From: a virus
Taxonomy: Duplodnaviria; Heunggongvirae; Uroviricota; Caudoviricetes
IMG/VR virus record: IMGVR_UViG_648861009_000010
Direction: 5' to 3' (one strand)
Length of the DNA: 42,228 nt
Below the pieces are notes generated by a model. That model did no database searches and was not told where the DNA came from. It saw nothing but the letters and a program-made list of their open reading frames with translations. The position numbers and the translations under genes are program-made. Positions 2,137 through 37,282 of this stretch are shown here, one piece after another (position 1 is the first letter of the stretch; each line of letters opens with the position of its first letter).

Positions 2137-2459
2137 TGGGACCCCCTTTTGATTTCTTGTTTGACACTTGCAGTTGCCAGACCGCAAGGTGTTTTAACAA
2201 ATCAAAAGGGGTTTTAATAACTGGCTCAAAGCTGAAAGCTTTCCGGAACCCCCAGCCTAGCTGGGGGTTTTCTGTGCACAAAAAAACCCTCTGTAGTAAC
2301 AGAGGGTTTTGTTCATTCATAGTGCAGGGTCAAATCATTCCCACTCAATTATTTACGATAACCATAACCAATTGAGTGATAACATTTTTCCAAATCTCAA
2401 TTTTTATCGTACCGTTTTATATACCGTCACCGGAAATCAGTACCATGAAAAATGCCATG

Positions 2460-7193: not shown

Positions 7194-7297
7194 GTTAAAT
7201 CTCCAGATAGTCGCAGCACCCGTTGCGCCGCATATCTGGTTATTCTATTACCTGAAAAACCACATATGGATAGAAAGGCTGTGAATATGAATAGATA

Positions 7298-7312
7298 TTA
7301 CCTTTCAGGTAA
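7298..7312. promoter_or_regulatory. Operator-like palindrome TTACC-TTTCA-GGTAA in the divergent tailspike / SOS-gene intergenic region
   Basis: Perfect 5-bp inverted arms; identical 16-mer ATTACCTTTCAGGTAA also at 26830-26845; half-site TTACC at 7248-7252. Confidence 0.55.
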
Positions 7313-7349: not shown

Positions 7350-7369
7350 TACTGTATATTTATACAGTT
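7350..7369. promoter_or_regulatory. LexA (SOS) box
   Basis: taCTGTatatttatACAGtt, a perfect CTGT-N8-ACAG with AT-rich spacer, 20 bp upstream of the ATG at 7389. Confidence 0.75.
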
Positions 7370-7388
7370 ATTGCATGGAGAAGATAAG

Positions 7389-7646
7389 ATGCAGCAGTAT
7401 CACTATCCACTGGAAGACGGATTTACCGAAAGGATTCACACGCCGGGAGGCGTCAGGTCACTGGTGGAGGGATCGCACTTGATGAAATTACTCCGGGATC
7501 TCGATAAGGATGGATTTAATGTCGATGGCCCACTTGCCGAACTGACTGCACTGATTAACTACGTCACCAGCTCACAGATGTCTATGCGGGATCTGCAAAC
7601 ACATCTCGACTATTGTGCCGAACAATTACGAAAACAAACCAGATAA
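7389..7646 (+). CDS. Small SOS-controlled protein, paralog of the C-terminal domain of the downstream BRO-N protein; candidate antirepressor
   Basis: 85 aa from ATG with SD GGAG 8 nt upstream; aligns with the 7947-8672 product C-terminus (LLRDLDKDGFNVDGPLAELT...RDLQTHLDY vs LLNQLQEDGHDVSGAAAELT...RDIQTHAEY). Confidence 0.65.
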   Translation: MQQYHYPLEDGFTERIHTPGGVRSLVEGSHLMKLLRDLDKDGFNVDGPLAELTALINYVTSSQMSMRDLQTHLDYCAEQLRKQTR

Positions 7647-7677: not shown

Positions 7678-7692
7678 TTACCTTTGCGGTAA
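7678..7692. promoter_or_regulatory. Operator-like palindrome TTACC-TTTGC-GGTAA
   Basis: Perfect arms; abuts a TTTACA -35-like hexamer; half-site TTACC at 7655-7659. Confidence 0.5.
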
Positions 7693-7783
7693 ATTTACAT
7701 CGCACTCCTCTTGTGCCATAGTAATCGGGCACTGGCAAAATCCAGTGCCGGGATTGGCGTCCCGGGTTACTAAGTGGCGCATA

Positions 7784-7805
7784 CCACGCCAGACGTGGTT
7801 TTTTT
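7784..7805 (+). terminator. Rho-independent terminator-like hairpin in the 300-bp untranslated spacer
   Basis: ccacg-ccaga-cgtgg followed by 7 T; preceded by two more perfect hairpins (7728-7749, 7748-7765). Confidence 0.5.
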
Positions 7806-7946
7806 ATGCGTTAAGCACAGCTATATCCGAATTATGGTGGGCTGGGCAGGGGTCCGAAAGGACGCCGGTACCACTTAGGCCGGTACGCCAACCTTGTCCA
7901 GTTCACCACCAGTAATTGGCGTTGCGGTGGTGATTAAAATCACTAA

Positions 7947-8672
7947 GTGGAGATAACCACCATGGCTAATGCTCAAACTGCCATCTTCAAATTTGAATCT
8001 GTTAACCCTATCCGTTCCATCATTATCGATGGCCAACCATGGTTTGTAGCCCAAGACGTTTGTAGTGCGCTGCGTATCCAAAACGTCACCCAAGCACTTG
8101 AAAAACTGGATGATGATGAAAGGTCTATGTTCAACATAGGGCATGAACATCGTGCAATTTTTGACAGCCGAGTAAAAGAGATCAACATCATCTCCGAGTC
8201 AGGCCTCTACACACTGATCCTCCGCTGCCGCGACGCAGTGACACCAGGCACTATCCCCTACCGCTTTCGTAAATGGGTTACAGGTGAGGTTCTTCCTCAG
8301 ATCCGCCGCACCGGAAGTTACATTAAAAACTCGCTCCCGCAGGAAGAACGCATAAAGATAGTTGCCGACCAGGTAGCCAACGCCACAGCATCAGCAGTGA
8401 TGCAGGCAATGAAGATAGAGAACAAAACCTACAGTGCCCCACTGAAGCCCGGCTACCGCAGCCTGATTCATTCTCCGTCTGGTGTTCTCGGCCTGACGGA
8501 GAACTCACTGCTGATGAATCTGCTGAACCAGTTACAGGAAGACGGGCACGACGTATCGGGCGCGGCGGCGGAGCTGACCACCATGTTCTGCTACATTGTT
8601 GGTGTGAGCAAATGCCTGCGTGATATCCAGACCCACGCGGAGTACATCAACGACAAGGCTGGGTTCTTCTGA
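7947..8672 (+). CDS. BRO-N domain antirepressor-like protein (Ant-like)
   Basis: N-terminal BRO-N signature (IFKFESVNPIRSIIIDGQPWFVAQDVCSALRI ... SGLYTLILRCRDAVTPGTIPYRFRKWVTGEVLPQIRRTGSY); start may be ATG 7947 or 7962. Confidence 0.7.
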   Translation: MEITTMANAQTAIFKFESVNPIRSIIIDGQPWFVAQDVCSALRIQNVTQALEKLDDDERSMFNIGHEHRAIFDSRVKEINIISESGLYTLILRCRDAVTPGTIPYRFRKWVTGEVLPQIRRTGSYIKNSLPQEERIKIVADQVANATASAVMQAMKIENKTYSAPLKPGYRSLIHSPSGVLGLTENSLLMNLLNQLQEDGHDVSGAAAELTTMFCYIVGVSKCLRDIQTHAEYINDKAGFF

Positions 8673-8744: not shown

Positions 8745-8759
8745 TTACCTTAAAGGTAA
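8745..8759. promoter_or_regulatory. Operator-like palindrome TTACC-TTAAA-GGTAA overlapping the moron promoter/RBS
   Basis: Perfect arms; directly abuts SD GGAGG of ORF 8772; putative -35 TTGCAG (8717) and -10 TACTAT (8740) upstream. Confidence 0.55.
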
Positions 8760-8771
8760 AGGAGGCGCGAT

Positions 8772-8939
8772 ATGACAGCGTTGAAAAATCGTACTCAGCA
8801 CAATGAACAAGCCAAGCAATGCTGGGATGTCATTGGAAAAGTTATGCTTGGCCGCGCAAGCAAAGAGCGCGACAAGGATATGGTTTACCAGACAGGAACA
8901 TCTTTCAGCGACTTCAAGGCGGCATTTCGCTCCAAATAG
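8772..8939 (+). CDS. Small protein (55 aa), unknown function, first gene of an AT-rich moron
   Basis: ATG with SD AAAGGAGG at 6-nt spacing; not in the ORF track (<60 aa); MTALKNRTQHNEQAKQCWDVIGKVMLGRASKERDKDMVYQTGTSFSDFKAAFRSK. Confidence 0.55.
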   Translation: MTALKNRTQHNEQAKQCWDVIGKVMLGRASKERDKDMVYQTGTSFSDFKAAFRSK

Positions 8940-8959
8940 AAGCACATCAGGAGTTTTCC

Positions 8960-9400
8960 TTGAAGTTTAACATTAGAATATCTAATAGTTTTCTACATGG
9001 GGAAAGCAACACCCCTTTCGCTGTAGACGGACCTTTCCTTACTGATGATGAAATAAAAATCATACAAAGTTTTTTAGAGGATGTTGCCAATGGAAGGGCG
9101 CTTGTTGGAAAAAACAAGCCCTCGTGGGTTGATGATAACCATGATAAAATTCCCGGCTCAGACAATTATGAGCAAGAGAATTATTGGCATTATCATTGTG
9201 GGCCAACATGGTATCCAAACACATTTAAGAATTATACCATTAACTTAAATTTCAACCCTGGCGGAAGGCATTCTAATGAATGCATTCATTATGCAAAAAA
9301 TGATAATGAAATTGTCATTGTTGGATTTTCAAGAGAACACATACCTTTCCTTTCATCAGATGGAAACAACAATCCGCTTTTTAATGATGAAGAAGAATAG
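8960..9400 (+). CDS. Unknown 147-aa protein with His/Cys-containing motifs, second gene of the AT-rich moron
   Basis: Open frame with no internal Met; likely TTG start at 8960 with SD AGGAG 6 nt upstream (the ATG at 8819 overlaps ORF 8772 and lacks an RBS); motifs YWHYHCGP and HSNECIHYAK; all four Arg codons are AGA/AGG; strong terminator follows. Confidence 0.55.
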   Translation: MKFNIRISNSFLHGESNTPFAVDGPFLTDDEIKIIQSFLEDVANGRALVGKNKPSWVDDNHDKIPGSDNYEQENYWHYHCGPTWYPNTFKNYTINLNFNPGGRHSNECIHYAKNDNEIVIVGFSREHIPFLSSDGNNNPLFNDEEE

Positions 9401-26830: not shown

Positions 26831-26845
26831 TTACCTTTCAGGTAA
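26831..26845. promoter_or_regulatory. Operator-like palindrome TTACC-TTTCA-GGTAA
   Basis: Perfect arms; identical to the 7298 site; between the head operon start and the tRNA region; TTGACA hexamer 18 bp upstream on the + strand. Confidence 0.55.
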
Positions 26846-27167: not shown

Positions 27168-27244
27168 GTGGCATTAGCTCAGTTGGACAGAGCAACCGCC
27201 TTCTAAGCGGTTGGTCGCAGGTTCGAATCCTGCATGCCACGCCA
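27168..27244 (+). tRNA. tRNA-Arg (anticodon UCU), phage-encoded
   Basis: Cloverleaf folded by hand: acceptor GTGGCAT/ATGCCAC, D-stem GCTC/GAGC, anticodon stem ACCGC/GCGGT with loop CTTCTAA, T-arm GCAGG-TTCGAAT-CCTGC, discriminator G, encoded CCA. Confidence 0.85.
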
Positions 27245-27904: not shown

Positions 27905-29380
27905 TTAAGCATATGGATCGTAATCTGTGATGGCCTTGCCTTGCTGGTTCTGCTGCCCGGGAATTCGCAGACGCTTCGACACAGGGAACGCAAACGTCAG
28001 CAGTAGCGCATCGCCTTTACCAGGAGAACGCCCAAGCCGCTCCTTGATATCTTCCTTCGGTTCGATAACGATTTTACCGTCCACTCGAACTTTGTACTCT
28101 GCCGCAGACAGGTCGTCCGCTGTTTCCTGGTCATCCAGCATGCCGCCCAGCCTCAGCCATGTCTTACATGAGTTGAACATCTCCCCACGCTTGTTAAGCA
28201 TCTGCGGGTCAGTGGACGCACCGCCGAACGGAACAAGTTGCCATGTACGTCCCCAGCCATCACCGATTGACTTCAAACCGGTTCCGTAACCGAAGTCGAT
28301 GAACACCGCGTCAGCCTGATACTGGTCTTCAAAGTCAGCGATACGCTTCGCCATAATCAGATCGTCGGTTGTCTTGTTGCCAGTCCATAGCACCTTACTG
28401 TGCAACCCCTGCCGCAGGTATATCACAGCGTCATCAACGCCTGAGTATGCCGGGTCAACACCGATTATCACCGGAGCATGCGCCACCTGCGCAGCGGTTA
28501 CCACCCGTTTCATTGCCTCATCAGTAAGACCGGTAGGGATAAACTGCAATTCAGATGCATCAGGGAATATGCCGCGCACACGGATTTTAACGAAGTCGCT
28601 GTCTTCCCCGTAGTCATCAACCCATTTCTGCAACTGCTGTTTGTTAGTGCCTTCCACCGTCCGGCTGTCAATCTGCGCAGTTTTCCAGCGGTGTTTATAT
28701 TTGCGGAAACATTCGCGGAAACGCCCGGTGTTACGTGTAGGGTTTCCGAATGCCACCCAGATAATCTCAGTGTCTTCGTCCGTCAGCGCACCCTCTGCTA
28801 CCTCCCACACCAGATCGGCAATGTTGGATGCTTCGTCGAATACCACGATGATGCGTTTGCGCTCGTTGTGTAGTCCGGCGAATGCCTCAGTGTTGTGCTC
28901 AGACCAGGGGATTGCGTCAGCTCGCCACCGCTTGTCGTGCCCAGGGTCATTGCTGTACATCGCGGTAGCGGTACAGGTAAACCAGTCTTTCGTGATAGCA
29001 AGGTTCGACCACTTGATAATTTCCGGCCAGGTCTTCGTTCGTAGCTGGTTGTCGGTGTTGGCGGTCACCACGACCTTACAATCCTCGCAAGTGGACATGC
29101 CCCAGTTGATCAGCATTGAGATGAATGCGGATTTACCAATACCGTGACCCGAAGCGCGTGCCAGCATAAGCGGCTGATAGCGCGTCTCTGGATTCTGCAG
29201 GTGATCACGTATCTCTCGGAACGCATCAGCCTGCCACTGACGTGGGCCGGTAGCATGTGCCAGTTCAGTCCCCTCTTCCCCCCACGGGAACGCATAGAGG
29301 GCATAGCCAAGCGGATCGTGAGTGAACCCTGCAATATCCTCGATCAACTGCTCTTCAGGAGATAACGCTGTATCTGTCAC
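27905..29380 (-). CDS. terL: Terminase large subunit
   Basis: 491 aa; P-loop-like ASGHGIGKS; acidic nuclease-domain motifs; overlaps TerS by 4 nt. Confidence 0.85.
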   Translation of the reverse strand: MTDTALSPEEQLIEDIAGFTHDPLGYALYAFPWGEEGTELAHATGPRQWQADAFREIRDHLQNPETRYQPLMLARASGHGIGKSAFISMLINWGMSTCEDCKVVVTANTDNQLRTKTWPEIIKWSNLAITKDWFTCTATAMYSNDPGHDKRWRADAIPWSEHNTEAFAGLHNERKRIIVVFDEASNIADLVWEVAEGALTDEDTEIIWVAFGNPTRNTGRFRECFRKYKHRWKTAQIDSRTVEGTNKQQLQKWVDDYGEDSDFVKIRVRGIFPDASELQFIPTGLTDEAMKRVVTAAQVAHAPVIIGVDPAYSGVDDAVIYLRQGLHSKVLWTGNKTTDDLIMAKRIADFEDQYQADAVFIDFGYGTGLKSIGDGWGRTWQLVPFGGASTDPQMLNKRGEMFNSCKTWLRLGGMLDDQETADDLSAAEYKVRVDGKIVIEPKEDIKERLGRSPGKGDALLLTFAFPVSKRLRIPGQQNQQGKAITDYDPYA

Positions 29381-29973
29381 TGATTACCATCCTGACGTTC
29401 TTTGAGTCGCTTCCTGGCTGCCGCTATGCGATCAGCAATTGTCACATTCACATTAACATCCAGGCGTTCTTTGAATGCGTTGACGTCGACGTGCTTACCA
29501 ATCAGTTCGAGGTTCTTCACCTTGTCAGGCCATTTAATTTTTTTGAGGATTGTCTCTATCGAATCCTCGTTCATGTTCATGATGGTCGATGACAGATCAA
29601 AGCCACTAAGCGTAGTGCGCCAGATTTTCGGCCACTCGCGGATTGGCTTAAGGCTCCCATCGTCGTTGAGGATATCAATCACGTCCATCTGGTCGATCTC
29701 CACCAGGCGCATGAGAACGTAATCGGCACTGACGCGCATTCGTTTGTTGCGCTCCTCCATCAACTCGGCAATCCGTTTTTGAATGCGTTCATCGCGCATC
29801 ATGACACTGGCTTTAACTGCCGCTGTATTTGGGGAGAATCCTGCGTTAATCGCTGCCTGAGTCTGGTTTTCAGGCGTTTTGATGTATGACTGGCAATAAG
29901 CCTCCTGCATTGCGGTTAGTGGCTTAAATTGCGTTGATTTGCGTTTATAGGTTTTAGGTTCAGCAGGCATCAT
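29377..29973 (-). CDS. terS: Terminase small subunit
   Basis: Start taken at the internal ATG at 29973 (MMPAEPKTYKRK...) with SD AGGGTGG; the track ORF extends to a TTG at 30051; coupled to TerL. Confidence 0.65.
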   Translation of the reverse strand: MMPAEPKTYKRKSTQFKPLTAMQEAYCQSYIKTPENQTQAAINAGFSPNTAAVKASVMMRDERIQKRIAELMEERNKRMRVSADYVLMRLVEIDQMDVIDILNDDGSLKPIREWPKIWRTTLSGFDLSSTIMNMNEDSIETILKKIKWPDKVKNLELIGKHVDVNAFKERLDVNVNVTIADRIAAARKRLKERQDGNQ

Positions 29974-29990
29974 AACCACCCTGGTAATTG

Positions 29991-30005
29991 TTACCGTTGT
30001 GGTAA
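29991..30005. promoter_or_regulatory. Operator-like palindrome TTACC-GTTGT-GGTAA just upstream of terS
   Basis: Perfect arms, 18 bp upstream of the ATG at 29973; an everted GGTAA-TTG-TTACC overlaps at 29983-29995. Confidence 0.5.
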
Positions 30006-30083
30006 TAGTACCATGCAAAATAAAGCCGCCATAGTTGGCGGCAGTATTCAAAACCCATCAAATTCATCATGCATAATCTACTC

Positions 30084-30095
30084 GTGACATGTCAC
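30084..30095. promoter_or_regulatory. 12-bp perfect palindrome GTGACATGTCAC (copy 3 of 3)
   Basis: Exact 12-mer about 110 bp upstream of the terS start, overlapping the stop of the preceding gene. Confidence 0.45.
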
Positions 30096-32344: not shown

Positions 32345-32976
32345 CCTTCACAGTTGTAATCACTACAGCCTTCAAAATCATATGGGCTGTACTGCCAGGT
32401 GATTTTTCCGCAATGCGGACAATTCCAACGCACCTTCCCGCTTCGCGACTTCTTTCTTCTGTTCTGCTTTTTCAACCAGTCAGGCATGACCAAACCTGCG
32501 CCCTGAACCATTGTTCTGCGGTTAAAGTTATTGATATTGAACGTCCGGCGCTTTACTGCATCAGCAATGGAAAATGGCAACCAAACTATTCCTGGTTCGT
32601 TTTTGTTGGCGACGCAAAAGATGGTCGCTTTACTGAAGTCATCGGTTGGCAATCCACCGTGTTGAAGCCAGTAAACATCGTTGCCGTTCCAGCTACCTTT
32701 TTTGTAGGCCACATACGCAGTGCAATCTGACTCAATCAGGCTTTCTGTAGGGATGTACTGGCAATCAACGTGCCACACAGCCATTGCATCCACGCTATCA
32801 GCGCAAACAGGCTGATCGATATCTCGTCCACAATTCCAGGCTTTTTGGGCTTCTTCCAGCGTGTAAACATGAGCGCGATCGATATCAGAACTGTAACCAT
32901 TGCCGTTATGGCAATGGAATGAGGCGTTATTACCCACAGTTTCACGCAAGCACATCATGTAAAAGCGGTTATTCAC
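32332..32976 (-). CDS. Hypothetical Cys-rich early protein
   Basis: 214-aa ORF, coupled to neighbours. Confidence 0.45.
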   Translation of the reverse strand: MNNRFYMMCLRETVGNNASFHCHNGNGYSSDIDRAHVYTLEEAQKAWNCGRDIDQPVCADSVDAMAVWHVDCQYIPTESLIESDCTAYVAYKKGSWNGNDVYWLQHGGLPTDDFSKATIFCVANKNEPGIVWLPFSIADAVKRRTFNINNFNRRTMVQGAGLVMPDWLKKQNRRKKSRSGKVRWNCPHCGKITWQYSPYDFEGCSDYNCEGWRE

Positions 32977-34069: not shown

Positions 34070-34084
34070 TTACCCCTTAGGTAA
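34070..34084. promoter_or_regulatory. Operator-like palindrome TTACC-CCTTA-GGTAA
   Basis: Perfect arms, 4 bp upstream of the ATG at 34066; the spacer contains the SD. Confidence 0.5.
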
Positions 34085-34131
34085 TTAAAAACCACATAAG
34101 ACATTAAATCAATAGACGTTAGAACATTTTA

Positions 34132-34146
34132 TTACCCACTAGGTAA
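34132..34146. promoter_or_regulatory. Operator-like palindrome TTACC-CACTA-GGTAA
   Basis: Perfect arms; 48 bp from the 34070 site. Confidence 0.5.
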
Positions 34147-34183: not shown

Positions 34184-34984
34184 TTACTTGATAAATCCTG
34201 CCGCCTTTCCCCGCCTGTATTCCTCCATCAGCCACTGCGCCGGTGTTATTCCCCCCAGGGTGGCGGCGTTAGGCATACACCCGAGACTTCGCCCTGGTGG
34301 ATGGTAAACGTCTCTCCCTGTGTCCGGAGGCGTACTCATGGGTTCTGGCTTTGCCTGTATGCTGATCACCGGATCGGGTATCTGCTGTCCGGAAGCCACC
34401 TTTTTCGCCCAATCATCGAGCAGCCTGCGCGCGTGTTTCTCAACCTCAATCTCGCTAAGCTGGCGCTGATACATTGCGCGGCGGGTATCACATACGACCC
34501 AGTACATAACCGGATGTCGCCACGGGAATCTTTCGGGACCACCAGGATATAAACTTTTTTCCTTGCTGTACCGGTGAAACTCCGCCATCACATCGTCAAT
34601 GGTGACGCCAAGAACCATCTTGCTGTCTTTGCACCACTTGATGAATTGCCCAGGCGACGGCCAGAACGGAGATTCACTGGCTCGGGCGTGGCGCATACCA
34701 GCAGAAACCTGTTCACGGGTTCGGATCCCCCCTTCGGCAAACGCAGCAATCCACTGCTGTTTTGCAGCAACTTCCTGCTCTGGCGTCTTCAGGTTGGTTA
34801 CCACTGCCGCCGGAAACAGTTGTTTCAGCTGTTTGAAAAGGGCATCAACAAGCCTCTCTGCTGACATGTTCACCACGTTGTCATTGTTGGTGTACTGATG
34901 CTCATAACCTGACATGCGAGAAAGGGCTTCTCCGTCACGGTTTTGTATCGCGGTAAAAACGTTGTTCACAAGAAATCCTCCCAT
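34184..34984 (-). CDS. Replication protein P-like (lambda P-type DnaB helicase loader)
   Basis: QQWIAAFAEGGIRTREQVSAGMRHARASESPFWPSPGQFIKWCKD closely matches the lambda P segment RQWVLAFRENGITTMEQVNAGMRVARRQNRPFLPSPGQFVAWCRE. Confidence 0.75.
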   Translation of the reverse strand: MGGFLVNNVFTAIQNRDGEALSRMSGYEHQYTNNDNVVNMSAERLVDALFKQLKQLFPAAVVTNLKTPEQEVAAKQQWIAAFAEGGIRTREQVSAGMRHARASESPFWPSPGQFIKWCKDSKMVLGVTIDDVMAEFHRYSKEKSLYPGGPERFPWRHPVMYWVVCDTRRAMYQRQLSEIEVEKHARRLLDDWAKKVASGQQIPDPVISIQAKPEPMSTPPDTGRDVYHPPGRSLGCMPNAATLGGITPAQWLMEEYRRGKAAGFIK

Positions 34985-35781
34985 GCTTCAGGGCTGTTCC
35001 AGTGCGGAACGTTGTTATCAGGTAATGTTGATTGCTTCTGTCTGCTAATCTGCAGTCGCCTTGCCAGCTTCTGCTCCCACTGTGCCTGATGGTATGCCTT
35101 ACCCTCAGCCATCCAGTAAATTCTGAACTCTGCAAGTTCCTGTGCCGTTGGCAGACTGTCCAGGTAGATCCCCTGCAATGAGCTTTTCCGAAGAAAGTCA
35201 TCTGATGGTTGCCATTGTTCATGCATGACAAATTTGCCTAATTGCCCTGGCCCACCAGGAGGAACAAAGTTATTCATCACGGCGTTGTTTGCGCCGGGGT
35301 CATGAGGCACAGAATCCCCGGTTTTTGTCCTGCTCTCCCTCTCTTGGTTAAATGACTGGTTATATGACTGGTTCTGGATCCCGTTTTTGGGATCATTCAA
35401 CATCCCGTTTTTGGGATCATTCAACATCCCGTTTTTGGGTATATTCCCGTTTTCGGTAACATTACCGTTTTCGGGTTCATTACCCCCTTCCCGGTTGCCT
35501 TTAATGTTCCCGTTTTTGGTTATATTAAGAGAGAAAACCCGCACTCTTTTCGTCGCTCCCTTTCTCTCTCCGGTATCTGAAATAAGCCCCATTTTCATGA
35601 GCGATATAAGTCCGGCCTGCACGGTTTTTTTATTCAGGCAAGTGTCTTTAACGAGGCGTTCTATGCTGGGGTAGCAGAGGTTATATTCATCGGCTCTGTC
35701 AGCCATCGAGAGCAGTATGAGCTTTAATGACGAGCTACCTGGATCTGTCTCCCAGGCCCAATCTGTTGCATGTCTGCTCAT
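34966..35781 (-). CDS. Replication initiator (O-like), HTH N-terminus, origin iterons inside the gene
   Basis: 271 aa; internal peptide repeats NGNIPKNGMLNDPKNGMLNDPKNGIQ encoded by DNA iterons; directly upstream of the P-like gene. Confidence 0.6.
   Translation of the reverse strand: MSRHATDWAWETDPGSSSLKLILLSMADRADEYNLCYPSIERLVKDTCLNKKTVQAGLISLMKMGLISDTGERKGATKRVRVFSLNITKNGNIKGNREGGNEPENGNVTENGNIPKNGMLNDPKNGMLNDPKNGIQNQSYNQSFNQERESRTKTGDSVPHDPGANNAVMNNFVPPGGPGQLGKFVMHEQWQPSDDFLRKSSLQGIYLDSLPTAQELAEFRIYWMAEGKAYHQAQWEQKLARRLQISRQKQSTLPDNNVPHWNSPEAWEDFL
35378..35520. repeat. Origin-like iteron array (about 6 copies of cccgttttYgg at 18-24 bp spacing) inside the O-like gene
   Basis: Two perfect 24-bp tandem units atcccgtttttgggatcattcaac, then degenerate copies; adjacent direct repeat atgactggtt x2. 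Confidence 0.7.
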
Positions 35782-36008: not shown

Positions 36009-36035
36009 TTATTGGTATTGGTATTGGTATTGGTA
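36009..36035. repeat. Hexanucleotide microsatellite (TATTGG)x4 plus partial copy
   Basis: tattggtattggtattggtattggtat, 12-40 bp upstream of the zinc-finger gene ATG; on the coding strand CCAATA, in-frame Ile-Pro repeats if the upstream start is used. Confidence 0.8.
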
Positions 36036-36159
36036 TTACGGTCATTTTGTGCTGACACAAAAAAAAGATCAACCACATTTGGTTTTTTATTACCTTTGAG
36101 GTACGAATAGATATGAAAAGACCGCCGGGTGGCGGTCTACAGAGGGTTGTAGCTGGATA

Positions 36160-36390
36160 TCATGAGTAGAAGAAGTATGCCAGTTCTGCTTTTGAGCGCA
36201 ACCATTGTCTTGTTTTACAGGCTTTAAAAAGCCCATTCATCAATACTTTACCTGGCATTTTGCGCTTACCTGTTAAGTGAGTCTGGATATAATGACTCGT
36301 CGTTCCGGCTTCCTGTGCGAAGGCTTCACGCTCATCCGGAGTAAGTGCAAGCCAGTGCTTTTTGAAATCGAAATGTCCGTTATCGCTCAT
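36160..36390 (-). CDS. Cro-like HTH regulator
   Basis: 76 aa; HTH-like segment EAFAQEAGTTSHYIQTHLTGKRK; divergent from the repressor gene across an operator-rich region. Confidence 0.5.
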   Translation of the reverse strand: MSDNGHFDFKKHWLALTPDEREAFAQEAGTTSHYIQTHLTGKRKMPGKVLMNGLFKACKTRQWLRSKAELAYFFYS

Positions 36391-36426
36391 AGCTATTGCC
36401 TGATATTTATTTCAGATAATAAATAT

Positions 36427-36489
36427 TCACCCATAAGGTAACAAAAATCAAGGATAGTTACCTATGGGGTGCATTTACCTGTTGGGTAA
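36427..36489. promoter_or_regulatory. Immunity-region operator cluster (three TTACC-N5-GGTAA-type sites)
   Basis: TCACC-CATAA-GGTAA (36427-36441), TTACC-TATGG-GGTGC (36458-36472), perfect TTACC-TGTTG-GGTAA (36475-36489); an imperfect site TTACC-TTTGA-GGTAC lies at 36090-36104. Confidence 0.6.
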
Positions 36490-36544
36490 TATTGCTTTAA
36501 ATTGAATCATCTACTGATTCATATATGAGGCGATTTTCCAGAAA

Positions 36545-37129
36545 ATGAAAAGTATCCAGGACGTCCGCAGGCAAAATCTCAACGACTTGATCGACCGTGA
36601 ATTCAATGGTGTTCAGACGCGGATGGCTGAAAAACTTGGAACTCAGGCAAATCTGGTAAACCGCTGGGCTCTTGGCAAGAAGGTTATCGGCGACCAGGTT
36701 GCGCGAAAAATTGAAGCTGCCGCCAATAAACCCCGTAACTGGCTTGATATCGATCGCTCGCTTTCTCAGGAAGGTTTTCAGCCTGTCGGCCCTAGCGACA
36801 TTGGTCAGCTGGCGGCTCACAACCTGGAACGCTGGATGAGCGAAAGCCGCGACCTTTCAACGCAGGGAAAACTACACCGCGCATCCGGCGTCGCCCAGGT
36901 GACAATCAGCCGCCTGTTAAACAATGAGGTCAGCGTTTCCATTTCCACCCTGGAGAATGTTGCATCCGCATTCGGGCGTCACGGCTATGAATTACTGATT
37001 CACCCGCACGACCCTGCGACCATCAACTATGATCGCTCGCGCTACGCATTGTTACCCGAAACCGAGAAAGCAAAGATCGAAAGTTACATTGAATTTGTCA
37101 TCAACCAGAACGAAAAAAACAAACAATAA
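36545..37129 (+). CDS. Prophage repressor candidate: two XRE-type HTH-like segments, no LexA-like (S24) cleavage domain
   Basis: 194 aa; HTH-like TRMAEKLGTQANLVNRWALGKKVIGDQVARKIEAA and RASGVAQVTISRLLNNEVSVSISTLENVASAFG; no Ala-Gly / Ser-Lys peptidase motifs; own terminator. Confidence 0.55.
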   Translation: MKSIQDVRRQNLNDLIDREFNGVQTRMAEKLGTQANLVNRWALGKKVIGDQVARKIEAAANKPRNWLDIDRSLSQEGFQPVGPSDIGQLAAHNLERWMSESRDLSTQGKLHRASGVAQVTISRLLNNEVSVSISTLENVASAFGRHGYELLIHPHDPATINYDRSRYALLPETEKAKIESYIEFVINQNEKNKQ

Positions 37130-37150
37130 AATCATACTTTTCAGTAAGTA

Positions 37151-37176
37151 AGCCGCCTTCTGGCGGCTTTTTTATT
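37151..37176 (+). terminator. Rho-independent terminator after the repressor gene
   Basis: agccgcc-ttct-ggcggct hairpin followed by TTTTTATT. Confidence 0.8.
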
Positions 37177-37186
37177 GCCTATACTA

Positions 37187-37201
37187 TTACCTAATGGGTA
37201 A
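37187..37201. promoter_or_regulatory. Operator-like palindrome TTACC-TAATG-GGTAA (pL-like region)
   Basis: Perfect arms, upstream of TTGACA at 37221. Confidence 0.55.
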
Positions 37202-37248
37202 TTTTTTTAACTCATATCTATTGACATCAAACCAAATACGCATAATTA

Positions 37249-37263
37249 TTACCTCAACGGTAA
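37249..37263. promoter_or_regulatory. Operator-like palindrome TTACC-TCAAC-GGTAA overlapping the -10/+1 of the early-left promoter
   Basis: Perfect arms; TTGACA 37221-37226, -10-like ATAATT about 15 bp downstream, ORF start at 37283. Confidence 0.55.
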
Positions 37264-37282
37264 CAGACCGAGGTAACAAGTT

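Follow-up and report, generated by a model that had tools for sequence, protein, structure and literature searches.

The region between positions 36,391 and 37,282 of IMG/VR virus record IMGVR_UViG_648861009_000010, a Caudoviricetes sequence of 42,228 nucleotides (the window hereafter, meaning the whole stretch that was analysed), is read here, with a probability of roughly 90%, as the immunity switch of a Uetakevirus (phiV10/epsilon15-like) prophage of Escherichia coli that functions in the same way as Rep-Ant of Salmonella phage SPC32H. This system is already known, and the window adds one more E. coli prophage to the characterised Rep-Ant switch. The immunity region showed 96-99% DNA identity to the E. 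coli phages phiV10, vB_EcoP_ZX5 (ZX5 below), TL-2011b and others, and 77% to Enterobacter phage Tyrion. It was found in 540 of 5426 complete E. coli genomes (about 10%), almost always on the chromosome; in one of these, the prophage was located between guaA and yfgI and displayed the gene order of an epsilon15-like podovirus of genus Uetakevirus.

The central gene was identified as an open reading frame (ORF) with homology to SPC32H Rep:

36545-37129, plus strand: rep, prophage repressor of 194 amino acids

The first-pass annotation, made from the sequence without database searches, had described its product as a non-cleavable repressor with two helix-turn-helix (HTH) segments and no peptidase domain, and the profile searches bore out this description. 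Residues 106-147 matched Pfam HTH_3 (1.2e-9) and residues 21-61 matched, more weakly, a Cro/YdaS-type HTH of Pfam (3e-4, under the curated cut-off), while PHROG repressor families matched residues 1-76 (2.8e-11) and, for phrog_8, the full protein (4.5e-27). No peptidase family matched Rep in the Pfam and PHROG profile scans, and no Peptidase_S24 match appeared at E-values up to 0.1. When phmmer was run against the PDB, residues 1-190 aligned with residues 2-197 of chain 5D50_A ('Repressor', Salmonella phage SPC32H) with an E-value of 4e-42, and entry 5D4Z (SPC32H Rep 92-198) was matched as well. All three parts of Rep aligned with SPC32H Rep without large gaps, its C-terminus corresponding to the tetramerisation domain and not to a peptidase. 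Non-cleavability is thus supported both by the absent S24 domain and by full-length homology to a repressor that is inactivated by an antirepressor.

Rep was 100% identical to phiV10p40, annotated as 'putative transcriptional repressor, two helix-turn-helix motifs', and to ZX5 ORF21. The latter identity supports the immunity-repressor function proposed in the first-pass annotation, since overexpression of ORF21 blocked the appearance of free phage and cut lysis-gene transcription by more than 99.9% (endolysin messenger RNA by 99.99%, holin by 99.97%; PMC9782041). A single-sequence AlphaFold2 model of Rep was unusable (mean predicted local distance difference test score, pLDDT, of 45). By alignment with SPC32H Rep, the protein would comprise an HTH DNA-binding part (about residues 1-72), an HTH_3-like dimerisation part (about 88-153) and a C-terminal part for tetramerisation and Ant binding (about 154-190). 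These roles follow those of the SPC32H protein, for which PMC9986798 gives an N-terminal DNA-binding, a middle dimerisation and a C-terminal tetramerisation/Ant-binding domain. Identity to SPC32H Rep was about 42-43% overall, highest in the N-terminal domain (53%), lower in the C-terminal one (49%) and lowest in the middle (33%).

The surroundings of rep were organized as follows, operators being scored against the pattern TTACC-N5-GGTAA, and the operator groups on the cro and recombination sides of rep being called the right (OR) and left (OL) operator regions:

36160-36390, minus strand: Cro-like HTH gene of 76 amino acids, divergent from rep, matching phrog_35 'transcriptional repressor' (5.6e-13)
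36427-36441: OR operator nearest cro, TCACCCATAAGGTAA, one mismatch, within the core of the candidate leftward cro promoter
36458-36472: middle OR operator, TTACCTATGGGGTGC, two mismatches, read directly from the sequence
36475-36489: OR operator nearest rep, TTACCTGTTGGGTAA, perfect, overlapping the candidate rep promoter
37150-37176, plus strand: intrinsic terminator of rep, with a stem at 37150-37169 and a T-run (-21.1 kcal/mol, z = -6.8), also annotated in phiV10
37187-37201: distal OL operator, TTACCTAATGGGTAA, perfect, 20 base pairs (bp) 5' of the -35 hexamer
37221-37249, plus strand: early-left promoter TTGACA (37221-37226)-17-AATTAT (37244-37249), a 10/12 consensus match
37249-37263: proximal OL operator, TTACCTCAACGGTAA, perfect, fused to the -10 hexamer and spanning the start site; the centres of the two OL operators are 62 bp apart

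This arrangement agreed with what had been proposed from the letters alone, namely a Cro-like gene divergent from rep across three operators, a terminator of rep's own, and two more palindromes flanking TTGACA and a -10-like hexamer. The description of rep as a monocistronic unit between two operator-bearing promoter regions also holds in view of the operators, the terminator and the promoter scan. The operon behind the early-left promoter comprised genes of 50 and 99 amino acids, PD-(D/E)XK exonuclease, RecT, AlpA-like and PerC genes and a methylase. The Cro-like protein was 58-84% identical across the genus, with AGTTSHYIQ-HLT invariant. It had no match in Pfam or NCBIfam, and its HTH match in the PDB was non-significant (E 0.43); a Cro-like function is suggested by its position, and its size, the phrog_35 match and the conserved HTH also fit. 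Candidate elements of the cro promoter were a -35 hexamer TTGATT (36451-36446, within the invariant AAAAATCAA) or, according to the promoter scan, TTGTTA-17-TATTAT (36444-36416). From conservation, TTTACC (36474-36479)-17-TTAAAT (36497-36502) is a candidate rep promoter; the perfect rep-proximal operator in its spacer would mean negative autoregulation.

The same palindrome was not restricted to the immunity region. With at most one mismatch, TTACC-N5-GGTAA was found 13 times in the window versus 0.47 expected, a count that was reached in none of 100 shuffles, and the two-mismatch middle site of OR brings the predicted Rep sites to 14. OR-like and OL-like sites thus share their palindrome with dispersed sites, as the first-pass annotation had it. 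The latter were located as follows:

36090-36138, minus strand: cro terminator (36138-36119), then operator GTACCTCAAAGGTAA (36104-36090), with equivalents in Tyrion and BUCT711
34070-34146, minus strand: second cassette of left-promoter (PL) type, consisting of an operator, 18 bp, TTGATT, 17 bp, and TTTAAT fused to a second operator
29973-30042, minus strand: terminator (30042-30017), adjacent operators at 30005-29991 and 29987-29973, then the terS ATG at 29973
26831-26845: operator 5' of the small gene preceding the portal gene; the syntenic epsilon15 site is annotated as a repressor site (2931-2947)
8745-8759: operator directly 5' of an AGGAGG ribosome-binding site and of an ORF starting at 8772
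7298-7312: operator in the ant promoter region, invariant in five genomes

The PL-type cassette sits 5' of a DUF1064 gene (34066-33722), and its 62-bp spacing was kept in five of five genomes. The layout in front of terS is the same as that annotated in epsilon15. A RefSeq-style start would be the TTG at 30051 (terS 29377-30051), which would place the terminator hairpin and both operators within the gene; the more likely start is the ATG 3' of GGTGG at 29973, which matches the epsilon15 and Tyrion starts. Nearby, a perfect 12-bp palindrome, GTGACATGTCAC, at 30084-30095 overlaps the stop codon of the last early gene, just 5' of a TAGATT hexamer and of the terminator preceding terS; it may be a late-regulator site. 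Behind the operator at 8745-8759, a 55-amino-acid ORF (8772-8939) is overlapped by a 193-amino-acid ORF (8819-9400, phrog_5954, function not assigned). The genome NZ_LR882057 carries different DNA at the position of window 8745-9400, and RefSeq has a YafO-family toxin gene in this neighbourhood; the segment may hold a repressor-controlled toxin-antitoxin or accessory gene. A full-text literature search for an operator consensus, ATTACCWDWWNGGTAAT, gave no match.

Comparison of the window with epsilon15, SPC32H, Tyrion and Klebsiella phage BUCT711 (the five genomes referred to throughout) revealed the same half-site at syntenic intergenic positions, with conserved spacings of 17, 18, 30/31 and 62 bp:

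in front of terS: a pair 18 bp apart; SPC32H has a single site at no more than one mismatch, and the record of BUCT711 stops inside terS
before the small gene preceding the portal gene: one site
between ant and the tailspike gene: one site
at the left promoter (OL): two or three sites
in the rep-cro interval (OR): three sites, with spacings of 17 and 30-31 bp, and fewer at no more than one mismatch in Tyrion and BUCT711
after the replication genes: a pair 62 bp apart

The OL pair and the pair after the replication genes were spaced by 62 bp (63 in one case) in every genome compared. In the DNA alignments, the TTACC and GGTAA blocks and AAAAATCAA in OR, as well as CTATTGACA and ATTATTACC of the left promoter, were invariant across the five genomes, while operator spacers varied. 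In epsilon15, SPC32H and BUCT711, the degenerate middle operator of OR corresponded to a perfect palindrome, again spaced by 17 bp from the operator nearest rep. The central five bases of the operators, which are presumably not contacted, were 64-69% A+T in the window and Tyrion, and 81-93% in epsilon15, SPC32H and BUCT711. The two repressor lineages divide in the same way, and the difference might adjust affinity or specificity. Seven of these sites carry 'protein_bind: repressor' features in the epsilon15 GenBank record AY150271.2, so the dispersed operators are not a new observation. A hairpin and a third OL operator were present before gp37 in epsilon15, SPC32H and BUCT711 (32479-32560 in comparison genome L003).

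The palindromes might mainly serve another protein, such as the Cro-like one or a late regulator, with Rep acting elsewhere or with another gene encoding the true immunity repressor. This would accommodate the fact that binding of Rep to the operators of the window is a prediction, that the Cro-like protein is as conserved as the operator, and that lytic repressors usually share operators with the lysogenic repressor; sharing of the sites by Cro is compatible with a Rep-based switch. The Rep of ZX5, identical to that of the window, silences lytic genes on its own (PMC9782041), no other CI-like or XRE repressor gene occurs among the prophage genes in the RefSeq annotation of the close relative NZ_LR882057, SPC32H Rep binds palindromic sites according to PMC9638917, and the epsilon15 curators assigned these sites to the repressor (AY150271.2). 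An alternative owner of the sites is therefore considered highly improbable. Stoperators of the mycobacteriophage L5 gp71 type, which are asymmetric, orientation-dependent and inside transcription units, were also rejected as a model, the sites of the window being symmetric and between genes; only their dispersal is alike.

Conservation was informative as well regarding the way in which Rep would read its operators. Its identity to the repressors of Tyrion, BUCT711, epsilon15 and SPC32H was 78%, 44%, 43% and 43%, respectively. The N-terminal domain was the best-conserved part, and its putative recognition helix NLVNRW was invariant in the protein alignment of the five genomes, which fits an N-terminal domain reading an unchanged half-site. 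The 'tandem-HTH' label of the first-pass annotation is true of the sequence and misleading for function: the two HTH-like segments do exist, but the second one is a dimerisation domain in the solved homologue (PMC9986798). A genuine tandem reader, a monomer or dimer in which both segments of each chain touch DNA and two different domains read the palindrome, would be in keeping with the HTH signatures of both segments and with the better score of the middle one against Pfam HTH_3. It is very unlikely all the same. The same source assigns DNA binding in SPC32H Rep to the N-terminal domain only, two identical half-sites suit two copies of one domain, and half-site and NLVNRW are invariant genus-wide while the middle domain falls to 33% identity. 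Internal duplication was considered and rejected: BLASTP gave no alignment between the two segments, and hhalign placed them in register with a probability of 1.7%, that is, without significant mutual similarity. A two-domain DNA reader is disfavoured because the segments are not detectably related, the half-sites are identical and the second segment of the homologue dimerises.

The first-pass annotation had recognized neither that the system was a described one nor its induction arm, which was found in the same window, about 29 kb from rep (7350-7646):

7350-7369: LexA box TACTGTATATTTATACAGTT, a perfect CTGT-N8-ACAG, 20 bp 5' of ant and conserved in the five genomes; LexA binding is predicted
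7389-7646, plus strand: ant, antirepressor of 85 amino acids, matching PDB 5D50_E 'Anti-repressor protein' (E 1.4e-46)
7678-8672, plus strand: second antirepressor module, with an operator (7678-7692), an isrK-like RNA (7729-7805), a C4 antisense RNA (7830-7913) and a Bro-N protein (7962-8672)

Ant was 85% identical to SPC32H Ant, and its gene lies next to the tailspike gene, in the same position as SPC32H ant. The Rep palindrome at 7298-7312 is located about 40 bp 5' of the LexA box, and the set of operator, LexA box and ant was kept in SPC32H, epsilon15, Tyrion and BUCT711. A second LexA-like site (7279-7294) was not counted, having one mismatch and no conservation in relatives. The review PMC7380047 attributes LexA-controlled Ant production to Kim and Ryu (2013). 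In the second module, the isrK-like and C4 RNAs were recognized by Rfam with 67.7 and 66 bits, respectively, and the last 80 residues of the Bro-N protein (236 amino acids) were 43% identical to the small Ant. It is laid out like P1 immI and the Gifsy-1 isrK-anrP locus, and SPC32H and epsilon15 are devoid of it. A -10-like hexamer (TATATT) is fused to its operator at 7678. The Bro-N protein of ZX5 (ORF4) was tested as an anti-repressor, and its overexpression lowered prophage titre and rep transcription and promoted the lytic state (PMC9782041).

The presence of a LexA-boxed ant explains how a repressor without protease domain can respond to DNA damage. It also bears on the possibility of a lambda CI/LexA-type switch, with a repressor cleaving itself on activated RecA and operators as in lambda OR and OL. 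The layout is indeed alike, with divergent rep and cro around three operators and a left promoter with two, and ZX5 lysogens respond to mitomycin C. However, Rep has neither an S24 peptidase domain nor another protease match, aligns from end to end with a non-protease repressor of known structure, and is accompanied by a LexA-boxed antirepressor gene conserved across the genus. Self-cleavage is excluded as far as sequence allows because there is no protease domain, and the probability of this scheme is close to nil.

The Rep-Ant switch proposed for this prophage would operate as follows. Rep would recognise the palindrome (A)TTACC-N5-GGTAA(T), 15-17 bp long, by means of its N-terminal HTH with the recognition helix NLVNRW, while the middle HTH_3-like segment would dimerise the protein and the C-terminal domain would build tetramers. 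Bound to the three rep-cro sites, overlapping the core of the cro promoter, to the two sites on either side of the early-left promoter, separated by 62 bp, and to about nine more sites before other lytic and accessory units, it would keep the whole prophage silent; rep itself would still be expressed as a one-gene unit ending at its own terminator. One Rep tetramer could bridge the OL pair, 62 bp corresponding to about six helical turns. Upon DNA damage, LexA would be freed from the box at 7350-7369 and Ant would be made, bind the C-terminal domains of Rep and take it off DNA, Rep not being cleaved. The second, Bro-N-fused Ant copy, behind a c4-type antisense RNA, would reinforce induction.

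Tetramer formation, domain roles, the mechanism of Ant and the immunity phenotype are taken from the literature on homologues. For SPC32H, the secondary accounts PMC9638917 and PMC9986798 describe a Rep tetramer that binds palindromic sites, the paired DNA-binding domains of which are contributed by different dimers, and a tetrameric Ant that binds two Rep dimers and breaks the Rep tetramer. The homologies, the positions and conservation of the sites, the terminators and the LexA box were obtained from the present sequence analysis. We infer that the 62-bp pairs are looped and that rep is autoregulated through its proximal operator, and the precise promoters assigned to rep and cro are likewise inferred.

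Several points weigh against this interpretation. The oligomeric state and Ant contacts of the window Rep are extrapolated from SPC32H, at only 33-49% identity outside the N-terminal domain, and the mechanistic details of the SPC32H system are themselves second-hand. For this particular prophage, Rep binding, transcription and induction are predicted from sequence and homology. A consensus promoter scan did not yield a convincing sigma-70 promoter for rep. Finally, the ZX5 study relied on heavy overexpression, and it gave the name anti-repressor to the Bro-N protein alone, leaving out the small Ant.

Two further suggestions concern the operators. Those standing right after intrinsic terminators (36090-36104, 29973-30005 and the third OL operator of epsilon15) could be roadblocks, or second locks, against read-through instead of promoter operators. 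A terminator with an operator or an operator pair right behind it was seen at three loci and in several of the genomes, and the promoter scan found no clear promoter overlapping these sites. This refinement is nonetheless doubtful: the evidence is purely positional, weak promoters could still be present, and a palindromic site is free of the orientation dependence known from mycobacteriophage L5 stoperators. The second suggestion is of broader scope and is possible, though still rather unlikely. TTACC and NLVNRW were kept in all known Uetakeviruses of E. coli, Salmonella, Klebsiella and Enterobacter despite divergence of the repressors to 42% identity, perhaps because the specificity is held fixed by some 14 operators spread over at least seven loci. 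In that case, the genus would be one immunity group at the DNA level, and with Ant conserved at 81-87% it would also be one cross-induction group, the 62-bp pairs being looped by one Rep tetramer and the post-terminator operators acting as roadblocks.

Rep and Ant of SPC32H and SPN1S were reportedly described by Kim and Ryu in 2013 and by Kim et al. in 2016. Their system (PDB 5D50, 5D4Z) comes from the same genus as the window and has the same gene order, operator half-site and site spacings, including a LexA box and an operator before ant in SPC32H. The window differs from SPC32H in having two OL sites and not three, without the hairpin and third operator, in its additional Bro-N-Ant module with isrK/C4 RNAs, and in its less AT-rich operator spacers. 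Among E. coli Uetakeviruses, the repressors of phiV10 (p40), ZX5 (ORF21) and TL-2011b were 98.5-100% identical to that of the window; the same terminators are annotated in phiV10, and the immunity region is essentially free of differences from these phages, the window being mosaic elsewhere (tailspike, accessory genes). The epsilon15 repressor gp38 and its binding sites are said to have been reported by Kropinski et al. in 2007. As in the window, ATTACC-N5-GGTAAT sites occur in epsilon15 before terS, gp3/portal, and tailspike and ant, at OL, and after the replication genes; its record leaves the three OR sites unannotated though present, and some neighbour genes differ from those of the window.

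More remote systems share parts of this logic. N15 AntC is a LexA-controlled antirepressor of the same kind. In phage 186 (Tum) and in Gifsy/Fels-2, a non-self-cleaving repressor likewise receives the SOS signal via a LexA-repressed antirepressor (PMC7380047). The proteins of all these phages are unrelated or distant, and the ant promoter of the window additionally bears the operator of the phage repressor itself. In P1, one repressor, C1, acts on many operators scattered over the genome, and ant lies behind a c4-type antisense RNA (immI). C1 is not related to Rep, however, and its operators are asymmetric 17-mers; this likeness is an analogy, not family membership.

Other features of the window were recorded outside the switch. 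A 24-bp iteron, ATCCCGTTTTTGGGATCATTCAAC, is present in at least four copies at 35378-35527 within a DnaT-like replication gene (34966-35781); by comparison with the lambda ori within gene O, these copies probably represent the phage replication origin. A perfect hexanucleotide repeat, (TATTGG) x 4.7 at 36010-36037, lies immediately 5' of the start of a 66-amino-acid zinc-finger-like gene (35997-35797, phrog_1081), and its copy number could vary. A full-length match to the Hfq-binding small RNA STnc490 (2146-2269, minus strand, 146 bits, E 4e-30) is located inside a 1.16-kb stretch (1123-2280) at the prophage/host junction, absent from the otherwise similar NZ_LR882057 prophage. Finally, a transfer RNA (tRNA) gene (27168-27241, plus strand) separates the large terminase gene from the portal gene and is encoded on the other strand than the late genes; it is a tRNA-Arg per RefSeq in NZ_LR882057, and SPC32H annotates one at the same place.

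If the switch works as proposed, this common prophage should be induced in a manner dependent on LexA and Ant and not by way of repressor cleavage mediated by RecA. The full Rep regulon of the prophage, 14 sites as predicted, can be listed from its sequence. The genus-wide invariance of the operator predicts cross-immunity and cross-induction between phages of different enterobacterial hosts.

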